DNA of 64,000 nt from assembly GCA_963779755.1 (NCBI GenBank), contig CAVZZO010000003.1, positions 1,664,001 through 1,728,000 of the forward strand, in the 5' to 3' direction. A model generated the notes under the pieces. That model worked only from the letters and a program-made list of their open reading frames with translations. It was not told the DNA's origin and did no database searches. How positions within the stretch are numbered: the stretch's first letter is position 1; every line of letters begins with the position of its first letter. Source of the DNA: an uncultured Gemmatimonadales bacterium (lineage in GTDB: Bacteria; Gemmatimonadota; Gemmatimonadetes; Gemmatimonadales; GWC2-71-9). Positions 5,325 through 22,040 of this stretch are shown here, in pieces. A program made the translations under genes and the position numbers.

Positions 5325-8012
5325 GTGGATGTGGCTTGTACGCGTGCGGGAGTGCTGCTCCTTCTGGTTTCCTTACCGGCTGCCGCGGCGGCGCAAACCG
5401 AGGCCGCGCGCCCCGTCCGGCGCCTGAACGATCATGCCGCGGCGCCGCAGGTCCACGCGGCGACCCTGCGGCAGGACCTGCACATGGATGGAAAGCTGGA
5501 CGATGCTGCCTGGCTGGCCGCAGAACCGGCGGGGTTGGCGGCTCAGTTGGATCCCAACGAGGGCGAGCCTCCCAGCGAGCGCACCGAGATCCGCGTCCTG
5601 GTGGACCAGCACGCGCTCTACATCGGCGCGCGCCTGTATGACGACCATCCCGACCGCATCGTCAGCCGCCTGGGCCGTCGGGACGAGCGGCCCGCCAGTG
5701 ATCGCCTGACCATCAGAATCGACAGCCGGCACGACCACCTGACGGCCTTTCTCTTTGATGTCTTCCCTGCCGGCAACAAGGGCGACGCCAGCGTGGGCTC
5801 GGACGAGCACGAGGACTATTCCTGGGACCCGGTCTGGGAAGTCGCGACCACCATCGACTCTCTCGGCTGGACCGCCGAGATCCGCATCCCGCTCTCGCAG
5901 TTACGCTATAACCGGGACTCGCGGGTCTGGGGTATCCAGGTGATCCGCTTCATCCAGCGGCGGCAGGAGGAAGACGTCTTCAGCTATGTGCCCAAGACGG
6001 AAAACGCCGGCGTCAACCGCTACGGACACCTGACCGGCCTGCGCGGACTGCCGGCCACCCGGCGCGTCGAGGTGACCCCGTACGTGGCGGGACGGGCCGA
6101 GTATCAGCCCGCGCAGGCCGGCGACCCGTTTGCACGGGGACACGACTACACCGGCTCCGCCGGCGCCGATTTCAAGGTGGGGCTGGGCAGCAACCTGACG
6201 CTCGACGGCACGGTGAACCCCGACTTCGGCCAGGTCGAGGTCGATCCGGCGGTGGTGAACCTCACCGCCTTCGAGACGGTCTTCGACGAGAAGCGCCCCT
6301 TCTTCGTGGAAGGCGCCGACCTGTTCAGTTTTGGGAACCTGCGCACCTACAACGCTTTCACCTCGCCCATCACCTTCTTTTCCCGGAGGATCGGGCGGCC
6401 GCCGCAGGGGGCCATTACCGCCCCGGGGGCCGCCTTCGCCGATGTGCCCGGTCAGACCACCATCGCGGCGGCCGGCAAGCTCACCGGCAAGACCGAAAAC
6501 GGCTGGTCCATCGCCCTGCTGGATGCGGTCACACCGACGGAGAACGGGAACTATGTATTGCCCGGTTCACCCGTCATCCGGCACCAGGCGGTCGAGCCGT
6601 TCACCAACTATTTCGTGGGGCGGCTCCGTCGCGAGTTGCGCCAGGGCAATACCGCCGTGGGCATGCTGGTGACCGCGGTCAACCGCAGCCTGAGCGAGCC
6701 CGCGCTCGAAGCCGAGCTGCGCTCCCAGGCCTACGCGGGGGGCATCGATTTCAACCACGCCTGGGGCAACCGGAACTGGGCGCTCGACGCTTCACTGGCG
6801 GGCAGCCGGATTGCCGGCAGCCCGGCCGCGATTGCCCGGGCCCAGCGCGCCAGTGCGCGCTACTACCAGCGCCCCGATGCCCATAACCTCCACTTTGATT
6901 CCACCCGTACCGCGCTTTCCGGCTATACCGCGCAGCTGGCCGTGACCAAGATCGGCGGCGGCCATTGGGGCGGGAACCTGGCCTATCAGGAGAAGAGCCC
7001 CGGCTTCGAGAGCAACGACCTGGGCCTGACCCAGACCACCGGCCGCCGCGGGATTTCCACCGACCTGCATTACTACCAGCCCCGCCCGGGCCTCTTCCGC
7101 AACTGGACCGTCGGAGTGCTGAGCGGGAACGACTGGAACTACGACGGCAATCACACTACCAGCTACCTGGGCAATATTATCGAGCTGCGGCTGCGGAACT
7201 TCTGGTCCTACCACAGCCAGCTCTTCTATGACTTCAGCGCCTACGACGACCAGCTCACCCGGGGGGGCCCCCTTGCCCGGCTGCCCCAGCGGGGAAACTG
7301 GGACATGTTCCTTGAGTCCGACGATCGCGGGGTGCTGTCGCTGCAGCTGGAAGGGCACTTCAACTGGAACACCGCCGGCGGGTACGCCACCAGGTATGGT
7401 GCCGGGGTGGTCTTTCAGCCCGGCCCCAATCTCCAGGTGAGCCTGGAGCCCAGCTATTCGCGCTACCACAACCTGAGCCAGTATGTCACCACGGTGGACG
7501 ACCCCACCGCCACCGCGACCTTCGGCCGGCGCACCGTCTTCGCCACGGTGGAGCAGCGCGAGGTGGCGCTGACCACGCGACTCAACTGGACTTTCAGTCC
7601 CATGCTCAGCCTGCAGCTCTACCTCCAGCCCTTCGTTTCCACCGGCGCCTACCACGACTACAAGGAATTCCGCGCGCCCGGCACCTTCAATTTCGACAGC
7701 TACGGCCGCAACCGTGGGACCATCGCTCAGGACCCCGCCACCGGCGATTTCACCGTCGACCCCGACGGCGCCGGCCCGGCGCCGGCCTTCGGCTTCCCGG
7801 CGCAGGACTTCAACTTCCGTTCGCTGCGGGCCAATCTGGTCATGCGCTGGGAATACCGCCCGGGCTCGACCCTGTTCCTGGTCTGGCAGCACTCCCGTGC
7901 CGGGGCGGCCGGACGCGGCGACTTCTCCTTCAGACGCGACTTCAACGCGATCTTCGATTATCCGGGGACCAACGTCGTGGCGGTCAAGATGACGTGGTGG
8001 CTGGGGGTATGA
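5325..8012 (+). CDS. CBM9-like plus DUF5916-type outer-membrane protein
   Basis: Signal peptide; DGKLDDAAW, GWTAEIRIPLSQLRY, TVNPDFGQVEVD, EKRPFFVEG and RWEYRPGSTLFLVW motifs. Confidence 0.8.
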   Translation: MDVACTRAGVLLLLVSLPAAAAAQTEAARPVRRLNDHAAAPQVHAATLRQDLHMDGKLDDAAWLAAEPAGLAAQLDPNEGEPPSERTEIRVLVDQHALYIGARLYDDHPDRIVSRLGRRDERPASDRLTIRIDSRHDHLTAFLFDVFPAGNKGDASVGSDEHEDYSWDPVWEVATTIDSLGWTAEIRIPLSQLRYNRDSRVWGIQVIRFIQRRQEEDVFSYVPKTENAGVNRYGHLTGLRGLPATRRVEVTPYVAGRAEYQPAQAGDPFARGHDYTGSAGADFKVGLGSNLTLDGTVNPDFGQVEVDPAVVNLTAFETVFDEKRPFFVEGADLFSFGNLRTYNAFTSPITFFSRRIGRPPQGAITAPGAAFADVPGQTTIAAAGKLTGKTENGWSIALLDAVTPTENGNYVLPGSPVIRHQAVEPFTNYFVGRLRRELRQGNTAVGMLVTAVNRSLSEPALEAELRSQAYAGGIDFNHAWGNRNWALDASLAGSRIAGSPAAIARAQRASARYYQRPDAHNLHFDSTRTALSGYTAQLAVTKIGGGHWGGNLAYQEKSPGFESNDLGLTQTTGRRGISTDLHYYQPRPGLFRNWTVGVLSGNDWNYDGNHTTSYLGNIIELRLRNFWSYHSQLFYDFSAYDDQLTRGGPLARLPQRGNWDMFLESDDRGVLSLQLEGHFNWNTAGGYATRYGAGVVFQPGPNLQVSLEPSYSRYHNLSQYVTTVDDPTATATFGRRTVFATVEQREVALTTRLNWTFSPMLSLQLYLQPFVSTGAYHDYKEFRAPGTFNFDSYGRNRGTIAQDPATGDFTVDPDGAGPAPAFGFPAQDFNFRSLRANLVMRWEYRPGSTLFLVWQHSRAGAAGRGDFSFRRDFNAIFDYPGTNVVAVKMTWWLGV

Positions 8013-8017
8013 CAAAC

Positions 8018-8103
8018 CGTAAGGCGTAAGGAGTGAGAGTCAGTATCCCTCGCCCCTTACGCCTCACCCCTCACGCCTCACGCCTCACGCCTCACGCCTC
8101 ACA
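8018..8103. repeat. Heptamer inverted-arm element (GTAAGGC / CCTCACG x~6) between convergent genes; possible bidirectional terminator
   Basis: gtaaggcgtaaggagtgag ... ccttacgcctcacccctcacgcctcacgcctcacgcctcacgcctcac; includes the tnaA stop. Confidence 0.8.
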
Positions 8104-9454
8104 CTTCAACAAACGTCGCCGAGAAGTGCCGCAGCGTCGGCGGGTTGTTGGTCATCCGCAGGCCACGCAGCGTTTCCCGGCACTGATACAACTCCCCCAT
8201 TGCCTCCACCACATAGTCAATGTGGCTCTGGGTGTAAACCCGCCGGGGGATGGCGAGCCGCACCAGTTCCAATGCCGGAGCCGTCTCGCCGCCACCGAAC
8301 ATGACGCTCCCGATCTCCACGGCGCGGATGCCGGCCTGCCGGTACAGCCCGCATACCAGCGCCTGGCCCGGGAACTCGGCCGGCGGGATCCGGGGACACA
8401 GCCCGCCCGCATCCACATAGACGGCATGGCCGCCCGGCGGCTCGATGATGGGATAGCCGATCTCCCGCAGGCGCTCGCCCAGGTATTCCACCGAGCGCAG
8501 GCGGTAGGCGAGATAATCCTCGTGGACCACTTCTTCGAAGCCCTGAGCCATGGCCTCCAGGTCGCGGCCCGCCAGCCCGCCGTAGGTAACGAATCCCTCG
8601 GTCAGGATCAGCAGCGAGCCGGCGCGCTGCGCCAGCTCCGGATCGCGCAGCAGCAGCACGCCGCCGATGTTCACCAGGCCGTCCTTCTTGGCGCTGATGG
8701 TGGCGCCGTCGGCCAGATCGAACATCTCGCGGACGATCGCCCGTACCGGGCGGTCCGACTGCCCCGGCTCGCGCAGCTTGATGAAATAGGCGTTCTCGGC
8801 GAACCGGCAGGCATCGAGAAAGAGCGGGATGCCGTACCGGTCGCACAGGGCCCGGACCGCCCGGAGATTCTCCAGGCTCACCGGCTGTCCCCCGCCCGAG
8901 TTGTTGGTCACCGTGACCATGCAGAGCGGAATCCGCTCCGCCCCCACCTCGTCGATCAGCGCCTGCAGCCGCGCCACATCCATGTTGCCCTTGAAGGGAT
9001 GGCGGCTGGAGGGCTGCCGGCCCTCGGCGATGACCAGATCCACCGCCCGCGCGCCGGAATGCTCCACGTTGGCGCGGGTGGTATCGAAGTGATTGTTGTT
9101 GGGCACGACCTTGCCCGGGCCGCCCATCAGCTCGAACAGAATCCGCTCGCTGGCGCGGCCCTGGTGCGTGGGAAGCGCGTGCGGAAATCCGGTCAGCTCC
9201 GCCAGCTTGGCCTCGAACCGGTAGAAGCTCTCGGCCCCGGCGTACGACTCGTCGCCCTGCATGATGCCGGCCCACTGGAGGCTGCTCATGGCCCCGGTAC
9301 CGCTGTCGGTGAGCAGGTCGATGAGCACGTCGCGCGCGCGGATGTTGAACACATTGAACCGGGCGCGCCGCAGGATCTCCTCCCGTTCCTCCCGGGTGGT
9401 GAGCCGCAGCGGCTCCACCACCTTGATGCGAAACGGCTCGATGATGGTCCGCAT
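8099..9454 (-). CDS. tnaA: Tryptophanase (beta-eliminating PLP lyase)
   Basis: EPFRIKVVEP, DLLTDSGT, HQGRA and SAKKDG (PLP lysine). Tryptophanase-type residues HFDTT, AVEIG and LRHF rather than tyrosine phenol-lyase FTTT, MERG and LRFF. Confidence 0.8.
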   Translation of the reverse strand: MRTIIEPFRIKVVEPLRLTTREEREEILRRARFNVFNIRARDVLIDLLTDSGTGAMSSLQWAGIMQGDESYAGAESFYRFEAKLAELTGFPHALPTHQGRASERILFELMGGPGKVVPNNNHFDTTRANVEHSGARAVDLVIAEGRQPSSRHPFKGNMDVARLQALIDEVGAERIPLCMVTVTNNSGGGQPVSLENLRAVRALCDRYGIPLFLDACRFAENAYFIKLREPGQSDRPVRAIVREMFDLADGATISAKKDGLVNIGGVLLLRDPELAQRAGSLLILTEGFVTYGGLAGRDLEAMAQGFEEVVHEDYLAYRLRSVEYLGERLREIGYPIIEPPGGHAVYVDAGGLCPRIPPAEFPGQALVCGLYRQAGIRAVEIGSVMFGGGETAPALELVRLAIPRRVYTQSHIDYVVEAMGELYQCRETLRGLRMTNNPPTLRHFSATFVEV

Positions 9455-9460
9455 GGAGGC

Positions 9461-9904
9461 TTAGCCCAGCAGGGCGCCGACCTGCCTCAGGCCGGTCTCG
9501 CCCAGGAGGGTACGCGCCAGGGGGAAGAGCACCTGATCTTCCCGCTCGATGTGGGCCCGGAGGAGACCGACCAGCGCATGGGCCGGCGGCCCCACCCCGG
9601 CCGCCGGCTCCGGGGACTCGAGCGCGTCCGCCAGCTGCTGCTCCAGCTCGCGCAGCTCGGCATGTTCCTCGACGAAGACGCCCGTGGGAGCCTCCTCGCC
9701 CAGCAGGCGGAAGAGCGCCCGCTCCTCGTTCTCGTTGTGCTGCCGGACGGCACTGGAGATGAACCGGTGCGCTTCGCGGATCCGGACCAGATTCAGGGTG
9801 AGGCTCTCGCCCCGCTCCACCTCCACGACGGCGGACTCCAGCTCGTCCAGCACGCGCAGCGCGTGCCGGTGCTCCTCTTCAAAACGGGTGATGGGATCGT
9901 CCAT
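9461..9904 (-). CDS. Hemerythrin-like (HHE) domain protein
   Basis: EEEH...HNENEERALF...EEH...HIEREDQVLFP pattern. Start at MDDPI (alternative GTG 9919). Confidence 0.85.
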   Translation of the reverse strand: MDDPITRFEEEHRHALRVLDELESAVVEVERGESLTLNLVRIREAHRFISSAVRQHNENEERALFRLLGEEAPTGVFVEEHAELRELEQQLADALESPEPAAGVGPPAHALVGLLRAHIEREDQVLFPLARTLLGETGLRQVGALLG

Positions 9905-9915
9905 GGTCCTGTCCT

Positions 9916-10935
9916 TCACGGCGTCGCGACCCAGCGGATTCCCTCGCCTCGCCGCAGGCGGTCGAATCCCTGGTTGATCTCCGCCAGCGGGACGGTCCCG
10001 CTGACGATGGGGCCGAGCCGCAGCCGGCCCGCTTCGACCAGCCCGAGAATCTCGGCATATTCCGACCCGCAGCAGCCCAGGCTGCCCACGATTTCCATTT
10101 CGTGGTACATCAGCTTGCCGGCGGCCAGCGCGGCGGGCTCGTGGGAGAATCCGATCACGCAGAGGCGGCCGCCCCGGCGCAGCAGGCTGAATGCCAGCTC
10201 GATCGTCGCCGGCCGGCCGATGGCCTCGAAGGCGATATCCACCCCCCCGTCGCTGAGCGCCCGGATTTCCTTGTCGGGGCGCGGCACCGAGCTGGGATTG
10301 AGCGTGGCCGTGGCGCCCAGACCCCGGGCCGCGGCCAGCCGCTCCTCGTTCACATCGAGCGCGATGACCCGGGCCCCCGCCACCACCGAACACTGCACCA
10401 CGTTGAGGCCCACCCCGCCGCAGCCCACCACCGCAACCACATCACCGGCCCGGACCCGGCCCCGGTATTTCACCGCATGGTAGGGGGTGCTGATAGCGTC
10501 GGCAATGATACACGCCTGCTCCAGCGGGAGGTCGGCGGGAACCGGGATCAGAATGTCCGCGGGCACGCGCACGTACTCCGCATAGGCGCCATCGATGTTG
10601 TTGCCCAGCATGATCAGCTGGTCGCAGAGATTGTCCCGCCCCTGGCGGCAATAGCGGCACCGGCCGCAGGCGTACACCGAGGGAATGAGCACCCGGTCGC
10701 CTTCGGCGCGGCCGCTCACCCCGGACCCCAGCGCGGCCACTGTCCCGGCAGCCTCGTGCCCCAGAATGAGCGGCGGCGGCTTGAAGGTCTTGACGCCGTG
10801 ATCGAGATAGTGCAGGTCCGTGTGACACAGCCCGCATCCCGCCACCTGTACCACGACCTCGCCCGGCCCGGCGACCGGATCGGGCACGGTGGTGACGTCG
10901 AGTCCGCCATTCCCACGATAGACCGCTGCTCGCAT
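9916..10935 (-). CDS. had: Zn-dependent alcohol dehydrogenase, probable 6-hydroxycyclohex-1-ene-1-carbonyl-CoA dehydrogenase
   Basis: GCGLCHTDLHY, GHEAAG, CGRCRYCRQGRDNLC, ADAISTPYHAV and GCGGVG motifs; operon context with dch, oah and bcr. Confidence 0.75.
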   Translation of the reverse strand: MRAAVYRGNGGLDVTTVPDPVAGPGEVVVQVAGCGLCHTDLHYLDHGVKTFKPPPLILGHEAAGTVAALGSGVSGRAEGDRVLIPSVYACGRCRYCRQGRDNLCDQLIMLGNNIDGAYAEYVRVPADILIPVPADLPLEQACIIADAISTPYHAVKYRGRVRAGDVVAVVGCGGVGLNVVQCSVVAGARVIALDVNEERLAAARGLGATATLNPSSVPRPDKEIRALSDGGVDIAFEAIGRPATIELAFSLLRRGGRLCVIGFSHEPAALAAGKLMYHEMEIVGSLGCCGSEYAEILGLVEAGRLRLGPIVSGTVPLAEINQGFDRLRRGEGIRWVATP

Positions 10936-10969
10936 TGCCTTTTCTCCCAGTCCTTTCTTTCTCCCGCCC

Positions 10970-11074
10970 GCCCTCGCCGAACCTCCCTCCGCACGCCGAC
11001 GGATCGCTTCGCGGCGATTCGATCCCCATCCACCGGTGGGCGCTCCTGACGCGCTGCGGGAGGCATCGGCTTCG
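10970..11074 (-). repeat. Hairpin repeat element A, copy inside the bcr operon
   Basis: Reverse complement is near-identical to 2748-2854. Confidence 0.85.
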
Positions 11075-11107
11075 GCCGGGGAGGGCCTTCCGGCGCAGTC
11101 CTATCTC

Positions 11108-11365
11108 TCAGTCCTTTTCTCTCGTCTCTTTTCTTGTATAGATCGTCGTGAACCTGAGCAGCGACACGATCCGGCAGTCGGTGCAATCCTCCGGCAGCTC
11201 GGCCGGCCGGACCGCCTGCTCCAGGACCTCGTACCCCAGCTGCCGGTACAGGCCCGCCGCTTCCGCGGCCCGGGGACCGGCGGCGGTGAAGCGGCGTTCC
11301 CAGCCTGCCGCCACCAGCTCGGGGTCGGGCGGCGGCTCCGGAAGGAACCTCTCTTCTTCCGGCAC
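11108..11365 (-). CDS. Small hypothetical protein with CxxC
   Basis: 85 aa, directly abuts the upstream stop; GWERRF..LYRQLGYEV..CTDC..TIYTRK. Confidence 0.7.
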   Translation of the reverse strand: MPEEERFLPEPPPDPELVAAGWERRFTAAGPRAAEAAGLYRQLGYEVLEQAVRPAELPEDCTDCRIVSLLRFTTIYTRKETREKD

Positions 11366-12172
11366 TCAGGCCTCCGCCGCGGCCAGCCGGCTGGCGCGCT
11401 GCCGCGCCAGCAGCCCCGCCCCCAGAGCGGCGGTGAACTGCACCAGGTCGCCCGGGGGCACGTTGACCTCGGCGCCGAGCTGCTCCCGCACCACGTCGAC
11501 CATGCGGCTGAATCGCAGGATCCCGCCGATCAGCGTGAACTCCGGCTCCATGCGCACCCGCTTCATGAGCTGCACCGACCGGCCCACCAGCGACACGATG
11601 GCGCCGTGCATGATGTCGGCGGGCGCCACGCCTTCGGAGAGATGGTTGATGACCTCCGACTCGGCGAACACGGCGCACACCCCGGAGATCGGGATCGCGT
11701 TGCGGGAGGTGACTACCAGCGGGCCGATCTCTTCGGTGCCGTAGCCCATGTACCGCGCCGTCTTCTCCAGGAACGCACCGGTGCCCGCGGCGCATTTGTC
11801 GTTGAGCCGGAAGGAGGCGACCTTGCGGCGGTCGTCCAGCCGGCTGGCTTTCATGGTCTGGCCGCCCACATCCAGCACCGTGCGGGTAGCCGGAAAGAGG
11901 TGCGCCGCGCCGCGGGCGCCGGCGGTCAGATCGGTAACCTGGGCATCGGTCTGGCCCGCATGGTGGCGGCCGAACCCGGTGGCCACCACATAGGCCAGCT
12001 CCTCCCGGCTGGTCCCCGCCGCCGCCGCCGCTCGGCGCAGCGTCCGGTCGGCCACCTCCGGCAGCCGGAACCCGGTGGGCTCCATGGCACGCGCCAGCAT
12101 CTCGCCGCGCTCATCCAGAATCACGGCTTTGGTATAGGTGGAGCCGATATCGACCCCCGCGACGCGCATCAT
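11366..12172 (-). CDS. Benzoyl-CoA reductase / 2-hydroxyacyl-CoA dehydratase ATP-dependent activator subunit (BcrD/BadG-like)
   Basis: [33 protein letters not shown] and [10 protein letters not shown] motifs. Confidence 0.9.
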
Positions 12173-12987
12173 GCGACCTCCCCGCCCGCGGGCACGGGCC
12201 GGCGACTGGCCAGGATGTGATCCAGCGCGAACAGCGCCGCGCCCAGCGCTCCCATGTAGTGCGACTCGGGGCTCACATTCACCGGCTGGCCCAGCCGCTC
12301 GGTCAGGGTGGCGATCATGGCCACGTTACGCGCCACGCCGCCGGTGAAGGTGACCTCGGACTCGACGCCCACCCGCCGGAGCAGCCCGGCCGACCGGCCG
12401 GCGATGGACTGGTGTACGCCGAGCAGGATATCCTCGATCTTCTTGCCGCGGCCCAGCCAGGAGAGGATCTCGGACTCGGCGAAGACGGTGCAGGTGGTGG
12501 TGATCTTCACCGGCCGCTCGCCCCGGAGCGCCGTGGGGCCTAGCTGGTCCAGCGGGATATCCAGCGCGCTGGAGGCGGCGCCCAGGAACCGGCCGGTGCC
12601 CGCGGCGCACTTGTCGTTCATGCAGAAGTCCACGATCTCGCCGTTGGGCGAGACCCGGATCGCCTTGGTATCCTGGCCCCCCATATCTACCACGGTGCGC
12701 GTGGCGGGGAACATCTGGACCGCCCCGCGGCCATGACAGCTGATCTCGGTCACCTGGGTATTCCCGAAAGTGACCTTGTAGCGGCCGTAGCCCGTCCCCA
12801 CCACGTACTCCACCTCTTCCTCCCGCAGGCCGCCATCGGCCAGCGCCATGGCGAAGGCCTGTGCCGCCGCCTGGATGACGTTGGCGCCGGTCTCCGTGAG
12901 CGCGCGGCCTACGATCCGGCGCTCCTCGTTAATCACCACCGCCTTGGTCTGGGTGGACCCGACGTCCACGCCCGCGGCCAGTGCCAT
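12169..12987 (-). CDS. Benzoyl-CoA reductase ATP-dependent activator subunit (BcrA/BadF-like, short form)
   Basis: [47 protein letters not shown] and CTVFAESE motifs. Confidence 0.9.
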
Positions 12988-13002
12988 ATTTCCTCCCTCC
13001 GG

Positions 13003-14304
13003 CTAGGCGCCGGCCAGCGCCGACTGGCGCCGGCGGGTCGCCAGCCCTTCGAAGAATGCATCCACGCGGTTCTTGAGCTGCGCTTCGGACACCACCCGCC
13101 GGTCCATCATGTCCGACTCGATGAACAGGCTGGGTGCTCCGCTGGCCTCCATCAGGGCGCGGCGGCTGTCCGCCAGCCCGGTGGACACCGTGCGGCAGCT
13201 CTTGATGGGGTGGTACACCACGCCGTCGGCGTGATAGTCGCCCAGCATGTGCAGCAGGATGCGGGTCTGGTGGAACATGCTGTCCATCGCGTCGCGCACC
13301 CCCAGCAGCACGCCTTCGGCCAGGCTGTCGAGCGGGCTGGCCATGTCGTACTGATAGCCCAGGTTGGCGCCCCCGGAGGCGAACCAGAGGTAGGTGGAAT
13401 TGACGAACGTCCCGCCCTGGCCGGAGAAGAACTCCTGGAAGCGGCGGAAGATGGGATAGCAGGGCACGCCGGCGAACAGCAGCCGGAACTGCTCCTCGTT
13501 CAGCGTGCCGATCCCGTGCAGCGCCTTGTACTCCATCTCCTCCACCAGCTGGTCGAAAAACTCCGCGCCCTCCGCGCTGCCCCGGAACCCGTTGGCCACG
13601 CCGAGATAGATGGTGCCCTCCGACAGGGCGTCGAACACGGCCGGGCGGCTGGCGTTCAGCTGCAGCAGGCGCTGCCAGCCCCGGCTCATGGTGTTGGCGT
13701 GTCCCAGCGTCTCGCGCAGCCGGTCGATATCGAACGGCCGGCCGGTGGTACGCTCGCAGAGCGCGATCACCTCGTCCAGCTGCGAGCGGACATAGCGGCG
13801 GTCGTTCTCGAAATCCGGATCGCCCGGGCCCGGCCTGGTCACGGAGGAACGCGAGCCGGGCACGTCGAGCGTGAGCGTGGGGATGTGATACATCCGCTCC
13901 CAGATCTCCGCCCATTTGATGTAGGTGTTGCAGGCGTTGGTGGCGATGGCGAACGCGGGCTTGGGGATCCGGCCCATGGGGTGCGCCCCGCCCCGCAACT
14001 GCAGCGCCACGTCGGCCTTGACGTAGCCGCAGATGTCGGGCGAGTAGCCGTAGTCTTCCGCCTCATTGAGGTACTCGTGCGCGACGTGCCGCACCGCGGT
14101 CTGCAGTGAGTTGATTTCGGGAAATACCGTGGGGATATCGAACGACCGCAGCAGCTCCGCCAGGCTGCCCATCACGAAGACATATGCCGCCGGCGCCTGC
14201 GTCTCCGCCGCCTGCGTCAGCTCCTCGTACCACTTCCGGAAGAGGCGGCCCCCTTCCCGGTTGCCGCGCCCCACCAGGGAATCCCGGCTGTCCGGTCCCG
14301 TCAT
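13003..14304 (-). CDS. bcrB: Benzoyl-CoA reductase subunit B-like (HgdA/BcrB family)
   Basis: SPDICGYVKAD, FDIDRLRE, FRGS, IKSC and FIESDMMDRR..KNR resemble Thauera-type BcrB as I recall it; 433 aa. Confidence 0.75.
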   Translation of the reverse strand: MTGPDSRDSLVGRGNREGGRLFRKWYEELTQAAETQAPAAYVFVMGSLAELLRSFDIPTVFPEINSLQTAVRHVAHEYLNEAEDYGYSPDICGYVKADVALQLRGGAHPMGRIPKPAFAIATNACNTYIKWAEIWERMYHIPTLTLDVPGSRSSVTRPGPGDPDFENDRRYVRSQLDEVIALCERTTGRPFDIDRLRETLGHANTMSRGWQRLLQLNASRPAVFDALSEGTIYLGVANGFRGSAEGAEFFDQLVEEMEYKALHGIGTLNEEQFRLLFAGVPCYPIFRRFQEFFSGQGGTFVNSTYLWFASGGANLGYQYDMASPLDSLAEGVLLGVRDAMDSMFHQTRILLHMLGDYHADGVVYHPIKSCRTVSTGLADSRRALMEASGAPSLFIESDMMDRRVVSEAQLKNRVDAFFEGLATRRRQSALAGA

Positions 14305-14316
14305 GGCGTCGCCCCC

Positions 14317-15501
14317 TTACTCGAAGAGTATGTTCTCGAGGAAGGTCTCCAGCTGGACCTCGAGATGGTCGGTGCTGGACATGTTCTCCTCGAACTCGCT
14401 CACGAAGTACGGAATCCCTTCCCGGTCCAGGGTGCGGGTATACACCACCTGCTCCTCCAGGCCCGGCTCGCACATCTTCGCGGCCGTGATGATGGCGGCG
14501 CCCGCCCCGGCCCCGCGGATCCGGCGCAGCAGCATGTCTTCCTTGGGCTTGCGGGGATCGTGCTGCACCGGGCTGTGGCTGGACTGTTCCAGATAGGCAT
14601 GCGCCAGGTTGGCCAGCGGATCGCCCTCCAGCGGCACGTCGGTCAGCAACCAGCGAAGCCCGATGAGCAGGTCGTCGTCCACCACGTAACAACTCCGTCC
14701 GATCGCCCGGATCAGATCCAGCGGCGGCTGCTCGCAGAAGCCCCCCTCCAGCACCACCCGGATCTTGTCCTGCCGGCGGCGCACGCGGCGGGAGAGCTGC
14801 GGCAGCACCTCGGCGAGCAGGGCATTGTGCTCCTCCCGCGGCAAGACCCCGCCGATCGCCGTGAGGATGTAGGCTTCATCCGCCGACACCTGCCACGGCA
14901 TTTCGCGTTTGAGCACGTAGAGGTCGCGGAGCAGCGAGCGGTTCCGGTTGAAGACGCCAAGCGAGTGGCGCAGGGCCTCGTCGGTCACCGGCCTGCCGGC
15001 CACCGCCTCGATGGTGCGGCGCAGGCGGTCGTACTCGCCGCGCAGCCACCCGGCCGCGGCGGGTGAGTCCGCGTGCTGCGGCAGGTAGAGGATCTCGCAG
15101 GGATAGGAGAAGTTCCGTTCCCAGACGGCGGCCAGGTTGCGCGCCGCATCGCAGATCGGATGGGTCACGAACAGATCCAGCTCCACTCTCGCCGAGAGGG
15201 CCAGCTCCAGGGACGTCTTCACGATCGAGCAGAGATAGGACCCGAACCGCGAATCCGCCTGGGTGGGCTCGATGGGAGCGCCACGCATCTTGAACGGCAG
15301 CATCCCGGCGGCGTGGACGATCTCTTCCGGGAAATAGACCTGGAAATGCCCCACCACCTTGCCGCCGCGCTCCCGCCAGCGGCGCACCGTGGGGAAGGAC
15401 GTATCCTCCAGCAGCTCCCGGCACTGCTGCAGCACGATATTCAGCGGCTGGCCCGACCAGCCCTCGAACAACGGTTCTGACATGACAGGCTCCCGGCTCA
15501 T
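14317..15501 (-). CDS. bcrC: Benzoyl-CoA reductase subunit C-like (HgdB/BcrC family)
   Basis: PEEIVHAAGMLP, ICDAARNL, FCEQPPLDLI, CYVVDDD and MCEPGL resemble Thauera-type BcrC. Confidence 0.8.
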   Translation of the reverse strand: MSREPVMSEPLFEGWSGQPLNIVLQQCRELLEDTSFPTVRRWRERGGKVVGHFQVYFPEEIVHAAGMLPFKMRGAPIEPTQADSRFGSYLCSIVKTSLELALSARVELDLFVTHPICDAARNLAAVWERNFSYPCEILYLPQHADSPAAAGWLRGEYDRLRRTIEAVAGRPVTDEALRHSLGVFNRNRSLLRDLYVLKREMPWQVSADEAYILTAIGGVLPREEHNALLAEVLPQLSRRVRRRQDKIRVVLEGGFCEQPPLDLIRAIGRSCYVVDDDLLIGLRWLLTDVPLEGDPLANLAHAYLEQSSHSPVQHDPRKPKEDMLLRRIRGAGAGAAIITAAKMCEPGLEEQVVYTRTLDREGIPYFVSEFEENMSSTDHLEVQLETFLENILFE

Positions 15502-16262
15502 CGGTGGCTCCAGGCCGGCACGCGCTTCTCCTGAAACGCCTGCAGCCCTTCGACGGCATCGGCCGTGGCCATCAGGGATTCGATATAGATCTGTTGCGCG
15601 CTGCGGAGGGCCGCCGCCCGGCTGCCGGCGCTCCCGGCCAGCAGCGCGCGCCGCGCCAGCCGCACCGCGGCCGCGCTGTGCCGCGCGATCCGCTCCCCCA
15701 GTTCCTCGGCCGCGGGCTCCACGTCGTCGTCCGGCACCACGCGGTAGACCAGCCCGTAGTCACGCGCCTCCGCCGCGCGGATCGGGTCGCCCGTCAGAAT
15801 GATGGAGGCCGCCACGGCATGGCCACAGCGTTCCGGCAGGAGCGCGCAGGCCGCCGGCGGAAAGACGCCCAGGGCAATTTCGGGATGGCCGAACACCGCG
15901 CTTTCACCGGCGATGACCAGGTCCGCCGCCTGCACCAGCTCGAAGCCGCCGCCCAGACACTTGCCCCGGACCGCCGCGATCACCGGCAACGGCCCGTCGG
16001 CCAGCGCCGATACGGTGCGGACGAACTCGGGGATCATGGTCTCGTATTCCGGCGGCAGATGCTCGCCCACGTCGGCGCCCGCCGAGAAGTGCCGGCCTTC
16101 TGCGGTCAACAGAATGACCCGCAGGTCCGCGGTCGCGACCAGCCGGTCCACCGCCTTCTGCAGCGCGACCAGCGTGTTGCGCGTCAGGATGTTGAGCGGA
16201 GGGGTGGCGAGAATGATCCGGCCGATGCCGTTGGCCGCCCGTACATGAATACCGCCGTTCAT
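15498..16262 (-). CDS. dch: Crotonase-family protein, probable cyclohexa-1,5-diene-1-carbonyl-CoA hydratase
   Basis: PPLNIL, HFSAGADVGEH, CLGGGFEL, PEIALGVFPP and LMATADAVEGL motifs; operon context. Confidence 0.75.
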   Translation of the reverse strand: MNGGIHVRAANGIGRIILATPPLNILTRNTLVALQKAVDRLVATADLRVILLTAEGRHFSAGADVGEHLPPEYETMIPEFVRTVSALADGPLPVIAAVRGKCLGGGFELVQAADLVIAGESAVFGHPEIALGVFPPAACALLPERCGHAVAASIILTGDPIRAAEARDYGLVYRVVPDDDVEPAAEELGERIARHSAAAVRLARRALLAGSAGSRAAALRSAQQIYIESLMATADAVEGLQAFQEKRVPAWSHR

Positions 16263-16972
16263 CAGGCCACCTCCCCCAGAAGCTGGCCGCCATCCACCGG
16301 GATCACGGCGCCGGTGATGAATCCGCCGCCCTCCCCGCAGAGGAAACGCGTCACCCGGCCGATGTCCTCCGGCCGGCCCATCCGGCCCAGCGGAGTGCGG
16401 GCCACGGCGCGCTGCCGCAGATCCTCCGGCATCGCCCGGGTCATGTCGGTATCGATGAAGCCGGGAGCGATGACGTTGACCGTGACGCCGTCGCGCGCAA
16501 GCTCCAGCGCCAGCGATCGGGCCAGCCCGATCAGCCCGGCCTTGGAGGCGGCATAGTTGGTCTGGCCCAGCCGTCCGCGGATCCCGTTGATGGACCCGAG
16601 CAGCACCACCCGCCCCATGGGTGAGCGGCGCAGAAGCGGCAAGGCCGCCCGGACGGCGAGAAAGGCGCCGGTCAGGTTGACGTCGAGCACCGCGCGCCAG
16701 TCGGCCTCTTCCATCTTCCAGCTCACCCGGTCGCGGGTAATCCCGGCAGCGCAGACCAGCCAGTCGAGTGCCTGCCGTTCCTCCTCCACCCGCCCCACGG
16801 CGCGGCGGAGGTCGTCCAGGCTGGTGACATCCCCCTCGAGCGTGAGCGAGGCGGGCGAGGCGGCGGGAAATGCCCGGTCCACCGCGGCCACCCAGGCATC
16901 CTCCGCCAGGGCCTCCGCGATGGCGTGGCCGATGCCGCGCCCCGCGCCGGTTACGAGAGCGGTGCGCCGCAT
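16262..16972 (-). CDS. SDR (FabG-like) oxidoreductase, possibly 3-hydroxyacyl-CoA (e.g. 3-hydroxypimeloyl-CoA) dehydrogenase
   Basis: TGAGRGIG, AGITRD, NYAASK and PGFIDTDMT motifs. Start at MRRTALV. Confidence 0.8.
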   Translation of the reverse strand: MRRTALVTGAGRGIGHAIAEALAEDAWVAAVDRAFPAASPASLTLEGDVTSLDDLRRAVGRVEEERQALDWLVCAAGITRDRVSWKMEEADWRAVLDVNLTGAFLAVRAALPLLRRSPMGRVVLLGSINGIRGRLGQTNYAASKAGLIGLARSLALELARDGVTVNVIAPGFIDTDMTRAMPEDLRQRAVARTPLGRMGRPEDIGRVTRFLCGEGGGFITGAVIPVDGGQLLGEVA

Positions 16973-18000
16973 GCGCCGCAATACCGGTGCTGAGCCGGGA
17001 GGTTGCCGGCCCCGCAGGCGCCGCAGACCCCGAGCGGCGGCCCCCACTCGGTCTCCGAGCTCAGGCCCTCCGCGGCCCGCTGCCGCAGCAGGTCGTAACG
17101 GGGCGGCCGCTTTTCCACGAACGCCCGCATCCCTTCCACCGGCTCCCAGGAGGCGTAGTGCAGGGCCAGCCAGTCCTGCGCATGCCGCACGGTGGAGTGC
17201 CACGCCAGATCCTTCCAGAAATTCACCTGCTGCTTGGTGTACCGGGTGCACTCCGGGAAGGAGGCGAGCAGCCGGGCGGCGAGATCCTCCACGAAGGCAT
17301 CGAGCTTCGACAGATCGAGCGCGTAGCCGTCCTCGCCCTTCTGGGCCTTGCGGATCTGGCCGGCATCGGCGCCCTCGACCCACTCGCCGTTGTGCCGCAC
17401 CGAGGGCACCACCCAGTTCACCAGGCCCCAGTCCAGTGCCTGTCGCGCGGTGACGGGCTCGTTGAGCATCAGGATCTGGCGGGCCCGCTTGTCGCCCGCC
17501 ACGATCGGCAGCCACTGGGTCGACCCGCCGCAGGCGACCGAGCCCACATGGGTGCCCACCTGCTTGATGATCGCGTGCTCCGCCATCACCGTCAGGTCGC
17601 AGGCCAGCTGGCTCTCGTTGCCGCCGCCCACGGCCATGCCGTTGAGCCGGGCCACCACCGGCTTGCCGGTGTTGAGAATGCTCTCGATATAGGCGCGGAA
17701 CAGCGCCATGTATTTCCAGTAGTCGCGCGGAACGGCCACGTACTCCGCGGCGTACTCCTTCACGTCGCCGCCGGTACAGAAGGCCCGGTCACCGGCTCCG
17801 GTGAGCACGATGACCCCCACGGCGTCGTCGAAGCTGGCGTCGCGGAACGCGGCCGCCAGCTCTTCCAGCGCGCGGGTGGAGTAGGCGTTGTAATTCTGGG
17901 GCCGGTTGATGGTGATCCGCGCCACGCCGCCGGCCTTGGCGTAGAGCACCTCTTCGAAGCCAAAGGTGTCGGCGCCGCGGGGCGCGAAATGCCGGGTCAT
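16951..18000 (-). CDS. oah: Crotonase-family ring hydrolase, probable 6-oxocyclohex-1-ene-1-carbonyl-CoA hydrolase, with C-terminal zinc ribbon
   Basis: YNAYST, AFCTGGDVKEYA, YMALF, NGMAVGGG and FPECTRYTK motifs; terminal CGACG..YCGACG. ATGA coupling to the TetR gene. Confidence 0.7.
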   Translation of the reverse strand: MTRHFAPRGADTFGFEEVLYAKAGGVARITINRPQNYNAYSTRALEELAAAFRDASFDDAVGVIVLTGAGDRAFCTGGDVKEYAAEYVAVPRDYWKYMALFRAYIESILNTGKPVVARLNGMAVGGGNESQLACDLTVMAEHAIIKQVGTHVGSVACGGSTQWLPIVAGDKRARQILMLNEPVTARQALDWGLVNWVVPSVRHNGEWVEGADAGQIRKAQKGEDGYALDLSKLDAFVEDLAARLLASFPECTRYTKQQVNFWKDLAWHSTVRHAQDWLALHYASWEPVEGMRAFVEKRPPRYDLLRQRAAEGLSSETEWGPPLGVCGACGAGNLPAQHRYCGACGAPLS

Positions 18001-18623
18001 GACGGGGGCGTGCATGTCAGTCCTCCCACCAGGTGGTCGGCGAAGACGGTGCCGAGCTCGGCCCCCTGGATGGTGCCTGCGGGTTGATACCAGCGGGCGA
18101 TCCAGTTGATGGCGCCCAGGATCACGAAGACGGCCACTTTGGGGTCCACGGCGCGAAACTCCCCCGCGCGGACGCCCCCGGCAATGATGGCCCGGAGACC
18201 GCGCTCGTAGCGGTCCCGGGCGGCGATGACCTGCCGCTGCCGCGCCTCGCCCAGCGCGGTGACCTCAAAGGCCAGGGGCGACCCCTCCAGCGTTTCGGTC
18301 ATCACCCGGACGTGCTCGCGGATGACGTGCCGCAGGCGGCCCGTGCCGGTCCGGTGCGCCCGCCGGGCCTCCCGCAGATGCCCGCTCACCTGGGCCAGCG
18401 AAACGCGGTGGCACTCGAAGAGGATCGCTTCCTTGTCGGGGAAGTAGTGGTAAAGCGCCTGCTTGCGCACACCGAGGTAGCGGGCGATGTCCTCCAGCGT
18501 GGTGGCGTGATAGCCCTTATCGCGGAAAGCTGTCAGCGCGGCACGCAGGATCTCCGCCCGGCGGCGTTGCCGCTTGCGGAGCACGTGAGGAGAGGAGCCA
18601 CTGGCCGATACGCGCCGGGCCAT
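17997..18623 (-). CDS. TetR-family regulator (KstR2/PaaR-like C-terminus)
   Basis: HTH GYHATTLEDIA..LYHYFPDKE; C-terminal GEFR..ILGAINWIARWY. Confidence 0.9.
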   Translation of the reverse strand: MARRVSASGSSPHVLRKRQRRRAEILRAALTAFRDKGYHATTLEDIARYLGVRKQALYHYFPDKEAILFECHRVSLAQVSGHLREARRAHRTGTGRLRHVIREHVRVMTETLEGSPLAFEVTALGEARQRQVIAARDRYERGLRAIIAGGVRAGEFRAVDPKVAVFVILGAINWIARWYQPAGTIQGAELGTVFADHLVGGLTCTPPS

Positions 18624-18721
18624 GACGGGCCTATTCCGGAAGAAAGAAGTCGGGTTTTACCACCCATTAGAATTCTTACCCACGGTTAAAAATTGGCAAG
18701 CCGGAGATTCTCCCACAGAGA

Positions 18722-18808
18722 AGACGGCAGGACGGCAGGACGGCAAGACGGCAAGACGGCAAGACGGCAGGACGGCAAGACGGCGGCACTCGCCGTCCTG
18801 CCGTCCTC
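18722..18808. repeat. GACGGCA(A/G)-type short tandem array with inverted arm
   Basis: About eight ACGGCAAG/ACGGCAGG units followed by gccgtcctgccgtcct; the same unit occurs at 2708-2740. Confidence 0.85.
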
Positions 18809-18970
18809 ACCGTGACTGTCGTCACTTCACCGATTTGTCCGCTGGGCCACTTTGTTGAGTCTTCGGCCTCCGCCGGGCTCCGGCGGGATTCCGGCCGGCC
18901 CACACCGCCCGGGCGATGCAGCTCGACGGGGCGGCCCAGAAGCAGAGGGACAACACCGGGAGGGACAGGT

Positions 18971-20434
18971 ATGAAATGGAAGGCGCTACCGCTCGCCGCC
19001 GCGCTGGCGACGCTGCTCGCCCCCGCGGCAGCAGCCCAGCGGGCCGGCAGCCTGGAGATCGGCGCGTTCGGCACCTGGCATAAATTCGACAAGAGCGTGC
19101 AGTTCAAGAACCACATCGGGGCCGGGGGGCTGGTGGGCCTGTTCGTGGCCCGGAATGTCTCCATCGAGGCCGATGCCTCGTACACCAAGACCCAGTTCAG
19201 CGTGAACCCCCGTAGCGATGTCACCTACGTCCCCATCCGGGGTCGGGTGGTCGCCCATGTGCCGCTGGGCAGCATGTCCAGCGTCAACCTGGGCGCCGGC
19301 TATGTGCGCGCCCGGTACGGCAAGGCTCTGAGCGTGGACGACAACGGCGCCACCGGCCTCATCGGGTTCCGCCTGGGGAGCAGCAATATCGCCGCCCGGG
19401 TCGACGGCATCATCGATTACATCCCCTCGCCCTACAACGAGCTCGACGGGTTCGTCAGCCGGAACATCCACTACAGCGTGCGTGCCGGCCTGAGTTTCCT
19501 CATCGGCAAGCAGGGGCCGCGCGACAGCGACCGGGACGGCGTCCCCAACGACCTCGACCGCTGCCCCGATACGCCCATCGGCACGGCGGTGGATGCCTCC
19601 GGCTGCGCCCTGCCCAAGGACGCCGATCACGACGGCGTGATGGACGATGTGGACCGCTGCGCCAACACGCCTGCCGGGGCCAAGGTGGACGAAAACGGCT
19701 GCCAGGTAAAGGACAGCGACCACGACGGCGTGATGGACTCGGTCGACAAGTGTGCGGGCACGCCCAGCGGGACCAAAGTGGACGCCGTGGGCTGCCCCGT
19801 GAAAGTGGACAGCGACGGCGACGGTGTCGTGGATGCGCAGGACAAGTGCGAGGATACGCCTGCCGGCACCAAGGTCGACGCGACCGGCTGCCCCATCGAC
19901 AGCGACAAGGACGGCGTGGTTGACGCCGCCGATCGCTGCCCCGACACACCGCCGGGCGCCAAGGTGGACGGCTCCGGCTGCCCCATCACGGATTCGGACG
20001 GCGACGGTATCGCCGACAGCAACGACAAGTGTCCGGGCACGCCCGCCGGCATGCTGGTCGGGCCCAATGGATGCCTGGTACTGTTCGCCGAAAACAAGGA
20101 AAGCGTGGTGTTGCAGGGGGTGACCTTCCAGACCGGCAGCTCGCGCCTCAGCATCGACGCGCGCAAGGTGCTGGATTTCGTGGCCCAGTCGCTCAAGGCC
20201 AATCCCGACATCAGCGTCGAGGTGCAGGGGTATACCGATTCGCAGGGATCGAATGCGGTGAACCAGCGGCTCTCCCAGGCCCGCGCGCAGTCGGTCCGGG
20301 CCTACCTGATCCAGAAAGGCGTGAGTGCCGGCCGGCTCACCGCCCGCGGCTACGGCGAGAGCAATCCCATCGCCGATAACTCGACCGCCCAGGGCCGGGA
20401 ACAGAACCGGCGCGTCGAACTGAAAAAGCAGTAG
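18971..20434 (+). CDS. OmpA-family protein: N-terminal beta-barrel, six thrombospondin type-3-like repeats, C-terminal peptidoglycan-binding domain
   Basis: Signal peptide from MKWKAL; 6 x DxDxDG(V/I)xDxxDxCxxTPxGxxVxxxGC; GYTDSQG..LSQARA..NRRVEL. Confidence 0.9.
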   Translation: MKWKALPLAAALATLLAPAAAAQRAGSLEIGAFGTWHKFDKSVQFKNHIGAGGLVGLFVARNVSIEADASYTKTQFSVNPRSDVTYVPIRGRVVAHVPLGSMSSVNLGAGYVRARYGKALSVDDNGATGLIGFRLGSSNIAARVDGIIDYIPSPYNELDGFVSRNIHYSVRAGLSFLIGKQGPRDSDRDGVPNDLDRCPDTPIGTAVDASGCALPKDADHDGVMDDVDRCANTPAGAKVDENGCQVKDSDHDGVMDSVDKCAGTPSGTKVDAVGCPVKVDSDGDGVVDAQDKCEDTPAGTKVDATGCPIDSDKDGVVDAADRCPDTPPGAKVDGSGCPITDSDGDGIADSNDKCPGTPAGMLVGPNGCLVLFAENKESVVLQGVTFQTGSSRLSIDARKVLDFVAQSLKANPDISVEVQGYTDSQGSNAVNQRLSQARAQSVRAYLIQKGVSAGRLTARGYGESNPIADNSTAQGREQNRRVELKKQ

Positions 20435-20524: not shown

Positions 20525-21463
20525 CTAGACCGCCCGCCTTGGTCCAGCCGCCGCCGGGCGCGGTGTGCCCCGGGTAATCAGAAGCACCGAGGCCACAATC
20601 GCGAGCGTGGCGAACGCGGTACGCAGCGAGAGGCTCTCCCCCGCCAGCAGCCAACCCAGCAGCACCGCCACCACCGGATTGACATAGGCGTAGGTGGACA
20701 CCTGCGTGGGCGGCGCCACCCGCAGAAGCCAGAGATAAGCCGTAAAACCGATCAGGGCGCCGAAGACGATGAGATAGAGCAGCGCGAGCGCCGACCTGGG
20801 CGTAATCGCGGCTAGATCCAGCCCCCGCCCCTCACCCAGCAGGAGCCCGGCCAGCACCAGCGCGGCGCCGCCGGCCAGCATCTCCATCCCGGTGGACAGG
20901 AGCGGGGAGGACGGGAGCCGTGCCGCGCGCGAGTACAGAGAGCCGATGGCCCAGGACAGACTCGCCAGCACCAGCATGACGGCGCCGAGGGCATCCACCC
21001 GCTCGCCCAGGCCCAGGCTGGCTGGGCTCACCAGCACCACCAGGCCGGCCAGGCCGAGCGCAAGCCCGGTCATCACCCGCAGGGTCGGGCGCCCACCGCC
21101 GGGCCGGAGCCATTGCAGCACGACCATCCACACCGGCACCACCGCCACGAGTACTGCCGCCAGCCCCGAGGGCACGCGCTGCTCGGCCAGCACCACACCG
21201 CCGTTGCCGCCCAGCAGGAGCAGGGCACCGATGACCGCCGCCGCCGCCCAGTGATGCCGGTCCGGCCCGGGGGCGCCGCGCAGGCGCGACCAGGCGTAGA
21301 GAATCAGCCCCGAGACGGTAAACCGGACGCCGGCCATGAACAGCGGCGGCATGGTCTCGATCGCGAACCGGATGGCGAGATAGGTGGAGCCCCAGATGAG
21401 GTACACCGCCGCAAAGGCGAGGACCACCTTCCAGCGGGGCGGCGTCAACGTTTCAGGTGTCAC
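20525..21463 (-). CDS. EamA/DMT-family exporter (YedA-like)
   Basis: VYLIWGSTYLAIR and YAYVNPVVAV motifs; ~10 TM segments. Confidence 0.9.
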   Translation of the reverse strand: MTPETLTPPRWKVVLAFAAVYLIWGSTYLAIRFAIETMPPLFMAGVRFTVSGLILYAWSRLRGAPGPDRHHWAAAAVIGALLLLGGNGGVVLAEQRVPSGLAAVLVAVVPVWMVVLQWLRPGGGRPTLRVMTGLALGLAGLVVLVSPASLGLGERVDALGAVMLVLASLSWAIGSLYSRAARLPSSPLLSTGMEMLAGGAALVLAGLLLGEGRGLDLAAITPRSALALLYLIVFGALIGFTAYLWLLRVAPPTQVSTYAYVNPVVAVLLGWLLAGESLSLRTAFATLAIVASVLLITRGTPRPAAAGPRRAV

Positions 21464-21923: not shown

Positions 21924-21958
21924 GCGGATATATTACTATTATTTAGAATATTGGTCAA
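21924..21958 (-). promoter_or_regulatory. Sigma70-type leaderless promoter of lrp
   Basis: TTGACC-17 nt-TAATAT-6 nt-ATG on the minus strand; AT-rich island. Confidence 0.7.
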
Positions 21959-22040
21959 ACCCCAGCGCCGACTCCCAGCCCAGGCATTCGGGGTTTCGGT
22001 TCGGGATGCCAGAGCCGCCCGGATGCGTTACCATTGACCC

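Follow-up and report, generated by a model that had tools for sequence, protein, structure and literature searches.

Why should a gene for the breakdown of tryptophan stand at the end of an operon for aromatic ring reduction? The question is raised by a stretch of 64,000 nucleotides (the window) from an uncultured Gemmatimonadales bacterium (GenBank assembly GCA_963779755.1, contig CAVZZO010000003.1, positions 1,664,001 to 1,728,000 of the forward strand). Here tnaA, encoding a tryptophanase-type lyase, closes a run of minus-strand genes in the order tetR-oah-SDR-dch-bcrCBAD-small ORF-had-hemerythrin-tnaA (SDR, short-chain dehydrogenase/reductase; ORF, open reading frame). The tryptophanase is an ordinary one; what is new is the recurrent physical association of such genes with ATP-dependent ring-reduction operons. 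The two papers that a full-text search found to name both tryptophanase and benzoyl-CoA reductase do so only incidentally, judging by titles and the openings of abstracts. A preliminary description of the locus proposed that tryptophan feeds the operon through indole and anthranilate. The reading favored here, at somewhat under an even chance, is that TnaA provides an anoxic route for tryptophan that is expressed together with an oxygen-sensitive ring pathway.

A tryptophanase-type lyase at the end of the operon

The tnaA ORF (8099–9454, minus strand) is complete, starts with an ATG at 9454, and encodes 451 residues of a pyridoxal phosphate (PLP)-dependent β-eliminating lyase of the tryptophan indole-lyase (TIL) type. 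The protein matches the Pfam family Beta_elim_lyase (PF01212) with 257 bits and, over residues 2–450, the NCBIfam tryptophanase subfamily PRK13238 with 655 bits (cut-off 285); it is thus a full-length member of the subfamily that unites TnaA and tyrosine phenol-lyase (TPL). It misses the cut-offs of all the equivalog models, scoring 540 of 750 bits for TnaA-pg1401 (NF053783), 533 of 721 for TPL, and 476 of 826 for tnaA (TIGR02617). Scores from hidden Markov models alone therefore cannot separate tryptophanase from TPL, and the tryptophanase call rests on individual residues. Alignments to solved enzymes give similar values for both activities. Solved tryptophanases and TPLs are 46–50% alike to the window protein over the full length, and end-to-end alignments score 463 bits for 8sij (E 1.2e-137, residues 3–448), 457 for 8sbg, and 459 for the TPL 1c7g. 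The window protein has the fold family, length, PLP lysine pair, and catalytic Tyr, Arg, and Asp of the known tryptophanases (EC 4.1.99.1; 8sij, 8sbg, 1ax4, 2c44), although the enzymes of E. coli and Proteus (389–425 bits) are about as distant from it as TPL is (450–459 bits). Its overall similarity to TPL (1c7g, 2ez1) is about the same as to TnaA, and the catalytic core is the same.

The substrate pocket separates the two activities. An excerpt of one study (PMC5805759) sets Asp137, Phe304, Val394, Ile396, and His463 of E. coli TIL against Thr124, Met288, Met379, Arg381, and Phe448 of TPL. In the alignment with 1c7g, residue counts within the ungapped blocks put D124, F288, V379, I381, and H443 of the window protein at the positions given in that excerpt; all five discriminating residues are in the TIL state, and none of those that define TPL is present. 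The motifs NHFDTT, VEIGS, and TLRHF all occur in the translation, in keeping with the preliminary description, which had singled out FDTT, EIG, and LRHF as marks of tryptophanase specificity. Y71, R100, K256/K257, D214, R217, and R404 are identical in 1c7g; they comprise the PLP lysine and the catalytic tyrosine, arginine, and aspartate.

Among 110 family members cut from the loci gathered in this analysis (one of them from the unpublished genome G014), the pocket reads D-[F/Y]-[V/C/L]-[I/V/L]-H in 103. Four are truncated at the last position, and three carry TLMRF, the TPL pattern. These three are second copies beside a TnaA gene, and since the TPL pattern appears in such neighboring paralogs, the five-residue test does discriminate. 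Judged from these sequences, the tryptophan pocket is constrained in linked and unlinked tnaA genes alike, and the window lyase can be taken with moderate confidence as a genuine tryptophanase.

The alternative assignment of the window lyase as a TPL was rejected, because its pocket residues are of the TIL type and true TPL-type paralogs are distinct from it. Such TLMRF paralogs adjoin a tryptophanase-type gene in some loci of Planctomycetota and Steroidobacteraceae (L026, L051, L053), and a second lyase copy lies beside a tryptophanase-type gene at 7879–9243 of locus L212.

The preliminary description placed tnaA last in the operon, and the flanking sequence agrees. The ATG lies six nucleotides beyond the hemerythrin stop codon (TAA-GCCTCC-ATG), just as had been stated, and the DUF5916 gene downstream is convergent, so that tnaA is the last gene of the run. 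A strong hairpin of GGCGTGA heptad repeats follows the tnaA stop codon (8019–8081, minus strand; −45.1 kcal/mol, z −4.1 relative to shuffled sequences, one of 200 of which did equally well) and is the likely terminator of the operon; its U tract is weak, and a simple terminator scan missed it. On the minus strand of 7900–19000 the sole sigma-70-like site lies upstream of tetR, at 18699–18672; one site against 0.6 expected in shuffles is weak evidence on its own. The same scan found no promoter-like site ahead of tnaA between 9455 and 18600, so that a separate tnaA promoter, foreseen in the preliminary description as an objection to its view, did not appear. Strand, the six-nucleotide gap, the promoter scan, and the terminal hairpin thus mark tnaA as a probable member of the operon, as far as sequence can show. 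Logan contigs of one soil run that cover part of the stretch are 37–233 nucleotides long, and none spans 9454–9461.

The promoter-like site overlaps two degenerate copies of a putative operator (18651–18699, minus strand). The underlying 16-bp palindrome, TTGAAC-N4-GTTCAA, was found in 39 of 44 related loci at a distance of 25–67 nucleotides upstream of tetR, frequently as a pair of copies spaced by 19 bp (L013–L017 and L105–L170, besides the window), and is likely to be the TetR operator of these Bcr-like operons. When the whole genome of the bacterium (4.23 Mb, 97% complete) was scanned with a position weight matrix (PWM) of these sites, the best and third-best matches fell at window positions 18673 and 18654; elsewhere there were only isolated matches of at most 18.2 bits.

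Hairpins of seven-nucleotide tandem repeats border the operon on either side, GGCGTGA at 8019–8098 and GCCGTC(T/C)T at about 18700–18790, upstream of the tetR promoter.

Repeated linkage of tnaA to ring-reduction operons

Is the position of tnaA peculiar to this genome? A sample of 401 Gemmatimonadota genomes was searched for TnaA (E ≤1e-100) and for close BcrC, the two lists being compared by eye, and up to 20 kb around BcrC (71 + 6 loci) was searched with the operon proteins. Close BcrC is present in 63 genomes and TnaA in 173 (one of them the unpublished G082); 53 have both. In seven of the 63, tnaA lies within 1.5 kb of an end of the operon: G000, which is the window's own, G070, G152, G115, G346, G197, and G377. 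No linkage was seen in the other 60 newly fetched BcrC loci, several of which end at contig ends. Searches with TnaA added four more cases, two among the best 80 of 588 relatives in genomes, with one genome per species (L064, L027), and two among the best 80 of 593 metagenome loci, of which 52 have at least 3 kb on at least one side (L196, L227). There are thus 11 linked loci with at least seven gene orders, none of them from G014 or G082.

These orders place tnaA at either end of the operon. It precedes tetR in G070, G152, G115, and L196. It follows had and hemerythrin in the window, bcrD and hemerythrin in G197 and L227, had and a radical SAM gene in G346, and had and a gene for a Cys-rich membrane FeS protein in G377; in L064, a Gemmatimonadales genome, it stands between had and hemerythrin. 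In L027, a Phycisphaera genome, the order is acyl-CoA ligase-thiolase-hydroxyacyl-CoA dehydrogenase-bcrCBAD-tnaA, with tnaA directly after bcrD and reductase subunits 39–58% identical to those of the window. The full order in L227 is dch-oah-had-bcrCBAD-hemerythrin-tnaA, and its reductase, 35–61% identical to the window's, is of the Bcr type with scores below the cut-offs. The genes that separate tnaA from the operon do not form one family; they encode radical SAM, Cys-rich membrane, and 178-residue proteins or, as in L227, hemerythrin. In 4 of the 11 loci tnaA and hemerythrin are adjacent.

The linked pairs occur in related soil and sediment bacteria, in differing gene orders.

On a FastTree phylogeny of 109 TnaA sequences (one from G014), the nine linked sequences then available require eight changes of state and are divided among three clades that lie well apart: one, with 80% identity, of Gemmatimonadota, Planctomycetota, and others, a second of Gemmatimonadota, and a subclade of Planctomycetota. 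The linked loci span two reductase lineages (about 70% and 40% identical to that of the window) and two phyla. A rough estimate, which assumes a target of about 6 kb and a genome size near 3.5 Mb and treats related genomes as independent, which they are not, gives about 0.1 linked cases expected by chance for the 53 genomes with both genes; the observed number is seven, with at least five arrangements. The spread across TnaA clades, reductase lineages, and phyla argues for repeated recruitment of tnaA to the ends of the operon, and a functional tie of some kind between tnaA and the ring-reduction operon is therefore likely. Co-occurrence agrees with such a tie more weakly than linkage does: TnaA is found in 53 of 63 BcrC-positive genomes and in 120 of the 338 others, and in one family (f6) 10 of 30 genomes have BcrC, and exactly these have TnaA.

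Possible meanings of the linkage

The window enzyme would act as a tryptophan indole-lyase, converting L-tryptophan and water to indole, pyruvate, and ammonia. Transcription of its gene would start at the promoter under TetR control, with tnaA as the final cistron of an ATP-dependent class I Bcr-like operon of the Gemmatimonadota type. The tnaA genes of at least three clades have come to stand at the start or the end of such operons on many occasions, frequently beside hemerythrin, and this argues for selection on co-expression. TnaA would then serve as an anoxic means of gaining pyruvate and ammonia from tryptophan, induced together with the anoxic catabolism of aromatic compounds. The genome encodes another tryptophan route, in a complete kynurenine cluster (G000:C3, about 979–988 kb; L195) with genes for tryptophan 2,3-dioxygenase (TDO), formamidase, a kynureninase-KMO fusion, 3-hydroxyanthranilate dioxygenase (3-HAO), ACMSD, and an aldehyde dehydrogenase. 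This kynurenine/3-hydroxyanthranilate route depends on O2 and does not pass through anthranilate-CoA. Because it needs O2 at three steps and the reductase works only without O2, TnaA could be the anoxic substitute.

Several findings weigh against the proposal of an anoxic, co-expressed tryptophan route. Among the 40 nearest genomes, close BcrC (E ≤1e-160) is present in 13 and TnaA in 11 of these (one TnaA-positive genome of this set is G014), and tnaA lies beside the operon in none of the 13; the two are on separate contigs, or 244 and 248 kb apart. Five relatives keep the run from tetR to hemerythrin, at 45–86% identity, without tnaA and with different genes after hemerythrin in each: malate synthase and isocitrate lyase, a TonB receptor, an HTH protein and SufB, or a ZIP transporter. 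The closest TnaA orthologs (80–83%) are encoded singly, with an amidase or oligopeptide transporter gene as neighbor. Across the phylum sample 56 of the 63 operon-bearing genomes have no linked tnaA, and TnaA is common regardless of the operon (173 of 401 genomes). In family f1 the enrichment at the level of genera is weak: TnaA occurs in many genera that lack the operon and is missing from genus g36, which carries the operon. The predicted operator offers little help: in loci with the order tnaA-tetR it lies between the two genes, downstream of tnaA, and the matrix found none upstream of tnaA; near unlinked tnaA genes of Gemmatimonadota (L002–L012, L171–L179) a scan of 1.48 Mb of TnaA loci found no site of at least 15 bits, and the unlinked tnaA genes of operon-bearing genomes have none either. 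Matches in AT-rich TnaA loci resemble noise. Control of tnaA and the operon by one TetR regulon is thus not the general rule. Some of the pattern could come from a single old linkage that was rearranged in cis, and the equivalog scores of the lyase, all below cut-off, belong on the same side of the balance. Finally, we infer co-transcription and tryptophan as the true substrate, and the role of TnaA as an anoxic substitute is read from gene content alone. The preliminary description had asked whether the linkage is conserved in relatives or unique to one genome. It is neither conserved nor unique, and it is not ancestral: it is missing from the near relatives and from most operon-bearing genomes of the phylum sample, while the 11 loci remove the objection that the pairing is confined to the window.

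These same counts lend some credit to the view that there is no functional tie at all and that a mobile, often horizontally transferred tnaA reaches operon ends by chance or hitch-hiking. Most operons lack a linked tnaA, phyla are mixed on the TnaA tree, which indicates transfer, the neighbors of unlinked tnaA genes vary widely, and no operator is shared. Yet this view must account for 11 loci in at least seven orders, drawn from three TnaA clades, two reductase lineages, and two phyla, where roughly 0.1 cases were expected by chance, and it appears improbable. About equally doubtful is the route of the preliminary description, in which tryptophan would pass through indole, oxindole, isatin, and anthranilate to 2-aminobenzoyl-CoA and thence to this reductase. 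The recurrence of the linkage speaks for it, and the scores of the Bcr, Dch, Had, and Oah homologs, all under the benzoyl-CoA cut-offs, would permit a substituted substrate. An anoxic oxindole-isatin-anthranilate route has been reported from metabolites, with the genes unknown, according to an excerpt of a review (PMC6221969). Two molybdenum hydroxylases in the genome are candidates for the hydroxylation step, and the Phycisphaera locus L027 has an acyl-CoA ligase in the same gene run. That ligase, however, is FadD-like, and none of the 11 linked loci has a hydroxylase, an isatin hydrolase, or a benzoate-type aryl-CoA ligase. The benzoate-CoA ligase noted as missing has no family member over the TIGR02262 cut-off of 375 anywhere in the genome; the best match (215 bits) is an acetyl-CoA synthetase, and the remaining ones are FadD-like or adenylation domains. 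No aryl-CoA ligase exceeds its cut-off in the genome (CoA transferases were not searched for), and neither phenylacetate-CoA ligase (PaaK) nor indolepyruvate oxidoreductase (IOR) was found there. The single PF04199 gene, of the isatin hydrolase/kynurenine formamidase family, is the formamidase of the O2-dependent kynurenine cluster. The better of the two hydroxylases looks like the α subunit of 4-hydroxybenzoyl-CoA reductase (828 bits, cut-off 995, far above the xanthine dehydrogenase models), and its neighbors are efflux and toxin-antitoxin genes, none of them aromatic. The search proposed in the preliminary description, for an indole-oxidizing molybdoenzyme, isatin hydrolase, and anthranilate-CoA ligase, yielded two candidates for the first and none for the others, and with no indole or anthranilate funnel visible in the genome the proposed feeding of the reductase by tryptophan finds no support here.

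Two further explanations tie TnaA to the needs of the reductase rather than to its substrate, and both are less probable still. Pyruvate from TnaA might supply a pyruvate:ferredoxin oxidoreductase, which would furnish reduced ferredoxin and, via acetyl-CoA, ATP for the class I enzyme. A 2-oxoacid:ferredoxin oxidoreductase lies beside the operon in eight related loci, so that oxidation of a 2-oxoacid is a plausible source of electrons, and among the other shuffled accessory genes are those for a cytochrome b-Fer4-FlpD fusion and for a Cys-rich membrane protein, both of them proteins of electron transfer. But any source of pyruvate would do, the recruitment of a tryptophan-specific lyase with a conserved indole pocket is left unexplained, and the oxidoreductase is absent from the tnaA-linked loci. 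The other explanation, similarly remote, starts from the cysteine desulfhydrase activity that E. coli TnaA possesses: with the hemerythrin, which resembles di-iron RIC repair proteins, TnaA might provide sulfide and iron for the assembly or repair of the O2-labile clusters of the reductase. Hemerythrin adjoins tnaA in 4 of the 11 linked loci, and Rrf2 regulators and SufB genes recur beside the operons. The similarity of hemerythrin to the RIC model is marginal (E 2.8e-4, far under the cut-off), and in the known systems of cluster assembly sulfur comes from desulfurases rather than from free sulfide. The five indole-pocket residues are strictly conserved in linked and unlinked members, which points to selection for tryptophan and speaks against a role in cluster maintenance.

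The anoxic, co-expressed tryptophan route thus remains the preferred reading. A bolder reading, for which the prospects are poor, would make TnaA, often together with hemerythrin, a recurring accessory of an uncharacterized class I Bcr-like lineage in Gemmatimonadota and Planctomycetota, marking an undescribed anoxic dearomatization of the tryptophan ring by these reductases, through indole and an amino-substituted or heterocyclic aryl-CoA. If this were so, genes for anaerobic indole degradation would sit in or around these operons. A metabolic tie would be a pointer to genes for the anoxic fate of tryptophan and indole, none of which is known according to the review excerpt (PMC6221969), and a clue to the substrate of a widespread uncharacterized reductase lineage (63 of the 401 sampled Gemmatimonadota genomes). 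A purely regulatory tie would still show facultative soil bacteria switching their use of tryptophan from an O2-dependent to an O2-free route.

The operon and its neighbors

The remaining operon genes, all on the minus strand, encode the four subunits expected of a class I reductase and associated proteins. The adjacent reductase genes encode two catalytic subunits of the HGD-D family (PF06050, about 200 bits each), bcrC-like at 14317–15501 and bcrB-like at 13003–14304, and two different BcrAD/BadFG-type ATPases (PF01869, 172 and 216 bits), bcrD-like at 11366–12172 and bcrA-like at 12169–12987. Equivalog scores of 271 of 421 bits for BcrC, 207 of 487 for BcrB, 214 of 578 for BcrA, and 126 of 313 for BcrD fall short of the cut-offs, and Bzd models score lower. 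The dch-like hydratase (15498–16262; TIGR03189, 199 bits, cut-off 292.5), the oah-like hydrolase (16951–18015; TIGR03200, 209 bits, cut-off 464), and the had-like zinc alcohol dehydrogenase (9916–10935; TIGR03201 dearomat_had, 238 bits, cut-off 339) behave in the same way. The best NCBIfam match of every Bcr, Dch, Had, and Oah homolog is a model of the benzoyl-CoA pathway, and each is below its cut-off; the system is therefore named Bcr-like class I rather than benzoyl-CoA reductase proper. An assignment of the HGD-D and BcrAD genes to a 2-hydroxyacyl-CoA dehydratase was rejected, given the two different ATPases, the higher scores of Bcr than of HadB/C models, and the presence of Dch-, Had-, and Oah-like genes.

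The first gene of the operon encodes a TetR-family regulator (17997–18623; PF00440 and PF17932), and a FabG-like SDR lies at about 16262–16972, its start taken from the translation. Between bcrD and had is an 85-residue ORF that matches no Pfam family (11108–11365); tblastn matches show the equivalent position kept in most related operons, and the product has only two Cys residues. Hemerythrin (HHE domain, 147 residues; 9461–9904; PF01814, 61.6 bits) begins with an ATG at 9904, 11 nucleotides past the had stop codon, and had is likewise followed by hemerythrin in the operons of G017, G020, G038, G009, and G011.

The class I cluster of the Thauera type shares with this operon the two HGD-D subunits, the two BcrAD ATPases, and the Dch-, Had-, and Oah-like genes, although each window component falls under its equivalog cut-off. 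The Thauera cluster reportedly includes a ferredoxin gene in the slot after bcrD, whereas the window operon has no ferredoxin gene and carries the 85-residue ORF at that place. Operons of the window type add SDR, hemerythrin, and, in a minority of genomes, tnaA, and have no CoA ligase inside. The setting of tnaA also departs from that of known tryptophanase genes: the window has no tnaC leader or tnaB permease context, and the ring-reduction operon takes its place.

Elsewhere in the genome, the 828-bit molybdenum hydroxylase is a three-subunit enzyme with Fe-S and FAD subunits (G000:C1, about 384–388 kb; L194 8286–12239), the FAD subunit being long at 364 residues. The fusion of kynureninase with kynurenine 3-monooxygenase (KMO) comprises 878 residues. 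At about 982065 its match to kynureninase passes from one reading frame to another, either through a frameshift or as a feature of the fusion.

Related operons vary in their accessory genes. Six loci (L106, L108, L158, L159, L196, and L136) have an Rrf2 regulator, a membrane fusion protein of about 525 residues that joins cytochrome b, two [4Fe-4S] motifs, and an FlpD/MvhD-like part, and a 178-residue protein of no family; this module is possibly a membrane-bound electron input for the reductase. The radical SAM protein (409 residues) and the Cys-rich membrane protein (327 residues) are encoded side by side upstream of the operon in G177, whereas G346 and G377 each have one of the two between had and tnaA (loci L107 13075–14304, L110 13136–14119, and L126 2227–4443). 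In one subset of operons (12 loci, L151–L168) a PaaX-like regulator replaces TetR. Another subset (8 loci, L112–L135), with had', oah', and SDR' in front, has a pair of thiolase and DUF35/ChsH2 genes within the operon and the 2-oxoacid:ferredoxin oxidoreductase nearby. The bcrC and bcrB matches of L168 (G285:C3, about 325–327 kb) are in several pieces, which reflects either decay of the operon or an assembly error.

Within the window, 2 kb upstream of tetR (20525–23366), lie genes for a YedA-type EamA exporter (274 bits against a cut-off of 270), an AsnC/Lrp regulator, and an APC amino-acid permease. The Phycisphaerae locus L032 has an EamA gene, with 53% identity to that of the window, 2.3 kb from tnaA; the gene is not kept beside the other operons.

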